A stretch of DNA of 64,000 bases from Streptococcus mitis. GTDB taxonomy: Bacteria; Bacillota; Bacilli; Lactobacillales; Streptococcaceae. Below the pieces are notes generated by a model, which saw only the letters and a list, made by a program, of their open reading frames with translations, ran no database searches and was not told the DNA's origin. The stretch is taken from positions 2,634 through 66,633 of the forward strand of contig JAWERV010000004.1 of NCBI GenBank assembly GCA_032481955.1, read 5' to 3'. This document shows, one piece after another, positions 4,427 through 4,474 of the stretch. The position numbers and the translations under genes were made by a program. The number at the start of each line of letters is the position of its first letter. Position 1 is the first letter of the stretch.

Positions 4427-4474
4427 CTACTTCCACCAAAGCAACGTTCCTAAAAGTGAAAAAAACTGAATCAT
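4427..4474 (-). CDS. 15-aa peptide MIQFFSLLGTLLWWK, putative ComS/XIP-like pheromone precursor (not in ORF track)
   Basis: AAGGAGG RBS; hydrophobic with C-terminal WW; first ORF after a ComR-box promoter and downstream of ComR-like genes. Confidence 0.78.
   Translation of the reverse strand: MIQFFSLLGTLLWWK

Follow-up and report, generated by a model that had tools for sequence, protein, structure and literature searches.

Genes and promoter of the locus

The window, the whole stretch of 64,000 nucleotides of DNA that was analysed, carries a gene cluster in which every member lies on the minus strand, in the order 887-aa dehydrogenase, distal ComR, proximal ComR, ComR box, short peptide gene, orf96, Trp-rich ORF, ATPase, membrane protein, ATPase and permease. 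The dehydrogenase is presumably AdhE. The features are given below in coordinate order; listener loci are related loci that retain a receptor and a MacAB-like transporter, as described in the next section.

219..1520, minus: FtsX/MacB-like permease, putative protection; retained in listener loci
1489..2172, minus: ABC ATPase 2 (LolD/MacA-B type); retained in listener loci
2153..3361, minus: 402-aa membrane protein, putative permease of ABC system 1; missing from listener loci
3373..3957, minus: ABC ATPase 1, putative export; missing from listener loci
3986..4075, minus: 29-aa Trp-rich cationic amphipathic ORF MWRWVWKIIKWILISLIWEAIWGWVKQWF with RBS, putative leaderless bacteriocin
4102..4392, minus: orf96, 96-aa protein, predicted small β-sandwich; follows the pheromone gene whatever the cargo
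4427..4474, minus: predicted 15-aa ComS-like pheromone precursor MIQFFSLLGTLLWWK; T7 run inside the gene
4484..4490, minus: Shine-Dalgarno sequence AAGGAGG; ATG 9 nt downstream
4578..4619, minus: ComR box GACATTTCTGTC (4619-4608), 24-nt spacer and TATAAT -10 (4583-4578)
4853..5761, minus: proximal ComR-family regulator (P type), likely cognate receptor; Pfam ComR_TPR, E 9e-68
5870..5881, minus: relic ComR box behind the distal regulator; without a -10 at the canonical distance and without a peptide gene
5897..6817, minus: distal ComR-family regulator (D type); Pfam ComR_TPR; putative orphan here

Translation of the minus strand of 4427-4474, from 4474 to 4427, gives MIQFFSLLGTLLWWK followed by a stop codon. 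A plus-strand reading of the same positions was discarded, the frame being closed. The initial annotation had taken the 15-aa ORF for a ComS/XIP-like gene downstream of a ComR box; the ORF, the AAGGAGG and the box were all found, on the minus strand, as was a -10. Its placement as the first ORF downstream of the box holds for ORFs that bear an RBS; the only one to precede it, in a leader of ~100 nt, is an ATG ORF of 7 codons without an RBS, which is absent from several alleles.

ComR boxes have been described as GACA-N4-TGTC elements situated ~24 nt upstream of the -10 and of the peptide's Shine-Dalgarno sequence (PMC11848300), and the spacing between GACATTTCTGTC and TATAAT is the same. The 2.16-Mb genome has five sites where an exact box is followed at 24 nt by a -10, all of them in ComR-family loci. 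Among 465 short ORFs (10-25 aa, at least 5 of 6 matches to AGGAGG, whole genome, both strands, genic regions included), a terminal WW within the last six residues was found once, in the pheromone ORF itself. The T7 run of the gene is T6 or T8 in some relatives. No expression run contained half of the words of the stretch, and in none of four runs aligned to it did a read cross 4427-4474, an outcome that is neutral as to expression. We hold the gene to be real, and its function as a pheromone gene to be probable.

The region at 4694-4860, in the gap between the proximal regulator and the box, gives multi-site matches in about half of the genus genomes, with some match in 208 of 400, and is probably a dispersed repeat. 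Upstream of the dehydrogenase, the minus strand of 9894-14931 and beyond contains an integrative element with a large serine recombinase, a replication-relaxation protein and a TrwB-like coupling protein.

The encoded peptide is very hydrophobic, is without a basic N-terminal leader and has its WW at positions -3/-2, so that it displays the C-terminal WW of type II pheromones. Type II precursors are likewise hydrophobic and 15-17 aa long, for example MLKFFSIVITGWWGL of S. macedonicus and MFKVFFTVMTGVFWWG of S. agalactiae A909. The register of the WW and the terminal Lys had both been taken as unusual, and each turns out to have a precedent: the ComS of S. agalactiae A909 ends in ...FWWG, with the WW also at -3/-2, and Lys is also the last residue of LGDENWWVK, the type C XIP of S. 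suis. What remains distinctive is the WWK ending as such, which has no match in the 483 systems of Dataset 1 of PMC11848300; a string search of that whole file was equally negative for LWWK, GGWW, SWWK, FFSLL, WWT and WWW. Of the mature forms proposed earlier, GTLLWWK (residues 9-15) may be kept as the simplest guess, by analogy with the 15-aa ComS of S. macedonicus, whose residues 9-15 are given as the active peptide (PMC13361665; Dataset 1 of PMC11848300), although its exact length is not fixed by the sequence. For ScbS, a 6-mer is reported to be enough for activity (PMC11796350). Among alleles of the window peptide, positions 9-10 vary, and variation is lowest in the last five residues.

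Two receptor types and their peptides in related strains

The two regulators belong to the ComR family, matching Pfam ComR_TPR with E values of 9e-68 and 3e-57, and the best PDB matches are to ComR (5fd4 at E 2e-53). The P and D regulators are 71% identical, with the differences gathered in residues ~115-240, where ~60% of positions differ; the remainder is ~90% identical and the HTH regions are nearly the same. By a hand-counted alignment, the S. thermophilus ComR residues R35, R39, P89, Y91, K100 and E146-D147 correspond to R32, R36, P85, Y87, K96 and D142-E143 of the window regulator; in the same alignment, the equivalents of R51, K87, T90, R92, E117, F171 and N208 are not conserved. The functional roles of these S. 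thermophilus residues are taken from PMC5131891. The window regulator has PDY where type II ComR has PTY. A reading of PDY as a change specific to a terminal Lys was rejected, for receptors associated with GGWW-type peptides carry PDY too.

A search for the box plus -10 pattern returned matches in 57 of 401 genus genomes, and the reversed control pattern returned none. Each matching genome contributed one region, the regions together holding 59 box sites, and a further 14 non-duplicate sites were added through a search with orf96, a set that is biased toward producers. The close relatives with species names (from 30 loci) include S. mitis and S. oralis as well as S. pseudopneumoniae and S. cristatus. 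The 57 genomes comprise 36 listeners, 19 of producer type and 2 with only another ABC operon after the box. In the listener layout, everything between the box and the ATPase 2-FtsX pair is deleted, so that the box stands directly ahead of the transporter genes; the receptor frame reaches 295 aa or more in 34 of the 36, and ATPase 2 is open in all 36. Over both sets, an intact hydrophobic ORF of 15-17 aa with WW near its end, typically at -3/-2, is present at 28 of 33 producer-type sites, the other five being four broken alleles and one assembly gap. At these 28 sites the slot is filled in this way despite unrelated DNA. The relic box at 5870..5881 is degenerate in several relatives. In two S. 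cristatus-like loci (L095 and L098), ~1.9 kb separates the receptor from the pheromone gene; this insert holds a second box, a broken ABC gene and two double-glycine-like peptides, and in L095 also a transposase-like ORF.

The peptide follows the type of the adjacent receptor. Where a P-type receptor adjoins the box, the peptide ends in LLWWK (9/9, window included), and where a D-type receptor does so, it ends in GGWW[G/S/T] (13/13); neither type was seen with the other's peptide in the 22 loci. In a 76-row tree, P and D receptors fall into separate, supported clades, and each pairing is found on mitis-like as well as on oralis-like orf96 backgrounds (identity to the window orf96 of 80-100% for P and 78-96% for D). 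Because the peptide tracks the adjacent receptor type, the proximal regulator is the likely partner of the window peptide, and the distal one is likely an orphan for the other dialect. The co-variation agrees with the earlier suggestion of a pherotype; it also narrows the choice of partner, which had been left between the two paralogs, in favour of the proximal regulator.

At the six remaining sites the receptors are more distant, and the peptides end in GGWWG (three), ISWWK (two) or FSWWW (one). The cristatus-like receptors of loci L097 (GGWWG) and L126 (ISWWK) differ by 7 residues. Since receptors so close are found with either ending, the cristatus-like receptors may read both dialects, and strict specificity is not general. 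It is also noted that the receptor and the peptide lie within ~250 bp of each other, so that the co-variation is in part linkage. As a recombination control, a P receptor on a D promoter was found in 7 of 36 listeners and in 0 of 13 producers (p=0.17, not significant). Among 13 close P alleles there was no excess of variation at third codon positions, with variable sites at 4, 3 and 3 of 16 each.

The peptide is broken at 4 of the 8 producer-type loci that have both receptor types (T6 once, T8 twice and one lost start codon). No broken peptide occurs at the 6 loci with a P receptor only or at the 13 with a D receptor only; compared with these, the tandem loci give Fisher p values of 0.085 and 0.004, respectively, for kin that are not independent. 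Two of the four broken alleles come from metagenome assemblies, and one strain is also frameshifted in neighbouring genes. The excess of broken peptides at tandem-receptor loci is a lead only, given that homopolymer errors are possible.

Cargo genes and orf96

Leaderless (class IId) bacteriocins are antibacterial peptides that have no leader and are cationic, Trp-rich and amphipathic. The Trp-rich peptide of the window has a hydrophobic moment of up to 0.82; in relatives, its ORF is present as one to three tandem variants, with 23 distinct sequences of 29-31 aa and a net charge of +2 to +5. Searches of NCBIfam and the atlas gave no family match for it. We regard the ORF as a putative leaderless bacteriocin gene. 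The roles in killing and in protection are suggested by the composition, the gene context and the pattern of retention.

In some producer loci, unrelated small ORFs take the place of the Trp-rich cargo, and orf96 still always follows the pheromone gene. This persistence whatever the cargo ties orf96 to the signalling module. The protein had no match in Pfam, NCBIfam or the atlas; it has 110 homologs, of which those with names are hypothetical streptococcal proteins. Its model (pLDDT 84) is a small β-sandwich, for which Foldseek returned no match at E<=0.001, and the best VIA match (Z 6.8, rmsd 4.3 over 70 residues) is to a common β-sandwich and is uninformative.

As to the replacements, locus L097 (G352:C10) contains eight tandem, near-identical 30-aa cationic ORFs at 696-1530 nt downstream of the box, in place of the Trp-rich cargo. 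One copy of this ORF is present in L126 and none in L099. In three other loci (L111, L143 and L144), in which both receptor types are represented, the substitutes are a hydrophobic peptide of 68 aa that contains two Cys, and another ABC pair.

Relation to known systems and proposed function

Among experimentally tested systems, the nearest is ScbR/ScbS (SIP), known from S. pneumoniae and S. pseudopneumoniae (PMC11796350). There, a WW peptide of 6 aa activates ScbR in an Ami-dependent manner, and ScbR controls a bacteriocin locus without being needed for competence. Both systems combine a ComR-type regulator of the mitis group, a short WW peptide gene downstream and a bacteriocin/transporter locus, the last being putative here. 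The ScbRS promoter, reported as a canonical box-N20-TATAAT, is of the kind found at the window locus, and alleles that keep receptor, box and transporter without the peptide occur both in ScbRS and in 36 of the 57 genomes here. Peptide-less ScbR strains are reported to respond to a neighbour's peptide, and induced protection was already suggested by the same authors (PMC11796350). The window system differs from ScbRS in adjoining adhE, in the core of its box, in a peptide that ends in WWK rather than the WWHG of ScbS, and in its cargo, a Trp-rich putative leaderless peptide as opposed to a lactococcin-972-like protein. It further has two receptor types, found also in tandem. The window genome has its own ScbR homolog at rnmV-ksgA, 40% identical to the proximal regulator, in an operon that ends in an orf96 homolog.

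A second relative is the ScuR/SarF-SptAB system of S. salivarius (PMC6703854), where two close paralogs at one locus likewise differ mainly in the peptide-binding region, and which shares with the window system an ABC transporter as target, the lack of a competence role and a peptide-less configuration. In contrast to ScuR/SarF, cognate peptides of the window receptor types are found in related strains. The peptides that activate ScuR/SarF are reported to require Trp at -5 and to prefer Gly at -1 (PMC6703854); window-type peptides have neither and were rejected as the missing native ligand of that pair. Two other classes were also discarded. In RtgR/RtgS, the peptide gene is divergent from the regulator and encodes a WxW motif (PMC7018657), and in MutRS it is convergent with the regulator (PMC11848300), whereas the window peptide gene lies on the same strand as its regulator, in the same orientation, and encodes WW.

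Dataset 1 of PMC11848300, in which adhE is named as a neighbour, lists two members of the same adhE-adjacent receptor family with the box and classes them as comRS. For M594_01005 (S. mitis S022-V3-A4), the peptide is entered as 'Unknown' and the gene downstream as encoding an ATP-binding protein, which is the arrangement of listener loci; for NCTC13807_00073 (S. cristatus), the listed peptide is an unrelated ORF without WW. Full-text searches of the literature gave no description of the locus or its peptides, six peptide strings returning a single unrelated paper, although supplements of the subscription Rgg/ComR surveys of 2010-2011 could list them. Bacteriocin-dedicated ComR paralogs are on record (bioRxiv 10.1101/2022.10.14.512260; PMC6703854), as are eavesdropping in the blp system (10.1101/087247) and cheater loci in S. 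mitis (10.64898/2025.12.10.693483).

The ORF, its RBS, the box, the -10, the gene order, the receptor family and the co-variation of peptide and receptor can be read directly in the DNA. Together with the analogies above, they make it probable, in our judgement, that the window peptide is the precursor of a pheromone of a non-competence ComRS that activates the proximal regulator and switches on its own bacteriocin/transporter operon. Peptide activation of the ComRS kind is suggested, indirectly, by the co-variation, by the equivalent of K100 and by the presence of SBP_bac_5 genes, of which the genome has six. By analogy with ComRS and ScbRS, the precursor would be exported and trimmed to a C-terminal 6-8-mer, and the mature peptide would re-enter through Ami/Opp. 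Its C-terminal carboxylate would then be held by the conserved lysine K96 of the proximal regulator (S. thermophilus ComR K100), the peptide-bound regulator would dimerise on the box, and the box promoter would be driven, with positive feedback and expression of the bacteriocin and the transporter. The distal regulator may serve as an orphan receptor for GGWW[G/S/T] that lets the strain answer its neighbours through the same box, and strains with only a receptor and the transporter may be listeners that induce protection.

An alternative, that the peptide is a genuine XIP and induces competence as well, via comX, would be in line with the WW motif and with the comR-box-comS order, which the window shares with the type II ComRS of the S. 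mutans, bovis and pyogenic groups (PMC5131902). The host, however, belongs to the mitis group, outside the range of type II, and its genome encodes ComC, with an ORF of 445 aa following that gene; type II also differs in having PTY where the window regulator has PDY. The ORF after ftsH, which from its position we take to be comX, has a weak sigma-70 match (E 9e-8, below the cut-off). Upstream of this ORF, the one comX-like copy covered by the analysis in a 94%-complete assembly, there is neither an exact box nor a box plus TATAAT, and none of the five exact box promoters of the genome precedes it. ScbR is also reported to be dispensable for competence (PMC11796350). In a mitis-group host that has ComC and whose examined comX-like gene lacks a ComR-box promoter, competence is an unlikely target; the peptide is likely not a SigX-inducing XIP, and we hold a competence role for it to be extremely improbable. 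The window system appears instead to be a non-competence ComRS similar to ScbRS.

It could also be supposed that both paralogs form one promiscuous WW-sensing system, binding this peptide as well as other streptococcal WW pheromones, with the dialects reflecting linked drift and the tandem pair tuning or antagonising the response as in ScuR/SarF or S. sobrinus ComR1/ComR2. Promiscuous ComRs are on record (PMC5131902), a single XIP is common to two S. sobrinus ComRs (bioRxiv 10.1101/2022.10.14.512260), and the present data add the nearly identical HTH regions and the cristatus-like receptors that occur with both endings. The concentration of P/D differences in residues 115-240 and the absence of cross-pairing at all 22 loci argue against such a system, which we consider unlikely. 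The hydrophobic, leaderless character of the peptide would also suit an action confined to the producing cell, as an intracellular timer or feedback element of the sort documented for ComS signalling in S. mutans (PMC13361665), or a role alongside the Trp-rich peptides, as their membrane-active partner and not as a ligand. Validated precursors, however, are just as short and hydrophobic, the peptide stays where the cargo is swapped for unrelated peptides, and intact receptors in peptide-less strains make sense only with a signal from outside; this explanation seems to us quite improbable.

The reading of the peptide as a pheromone for the proximal regulator may be extended, as a tentative and rather doubtful proposal, to a two-dialect alarm network on the adhE side across the mitis group. 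A minority of producers would use LLWWK or GGWWx to advertise Trp-rich leaderless bacteriocins of a new family, and the majority would eavesdrop with a receptor and a MacAB-like pump and arm their protection. Dual-receptor strains, the present one among them, would be in transit to silence via slips in the T run, and in orf96 the ComRS signalling of the mitis group would have an accessory subunit that has so far gone unrecognised.

Non-competence ComRS systems and orphan receptors that hear neighbours are already known from ScbR and ScuR; what the locus adds is two dialects, an orphan tandem receptor, a majority of listeners and an uncharacterised peptide cargo. It offers candidate ligands for a catalogued mitis-group ComR whose peptide is listed as 'Unknown', and a two-by-two set of receptors and peptides (receptors 71% identical, with one differing region) as a model for the switching of pheromone specificity. 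The Trp-rich ORFs point to an uncharacterised family of short peptides from oral commensals that are antibacterial candidates and for which a synthetic inducer is predicted. With producer, listener and dual-receptor alleles available, eavesdropping and cheating become directly testable in commensal streptococci.

Other ComR loci were seen in the same genome. At the ScbR-like locus L153 (G000:C2:65372, minus; rnmV-ksgA), the pheromone gene is frameshifted, one frame reading MNFFSLFSDLVV to a stop and another ending in ...LVTWWFK, the ending listed for S. mitis KCOM1350 (Dataset 1 of PMC11848300). The window WWK peptide might cross-activate the orphaned receptor of this locus. A third ComR locus (L154, G000:C77:6921-4571, minus) comprises a box, a 16-aa peptide MFGFEVFLSLSFWFYG, a 73-aa ORF and a thioredoxin-like gene, followed by three tandem Cys-containing peptides of 32-39 aa ending in CWD or CWS and by ABC genes. 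A second tandem ComR pair lies at G000:C29:22021-25256 (plus; L155). Its box is doubled, the -10 is followed by a short hydrophobic ORF, and the locus also has an ORF of 16 aa, MIFMPVPMLWWMWFRK, and an ABC transporter.
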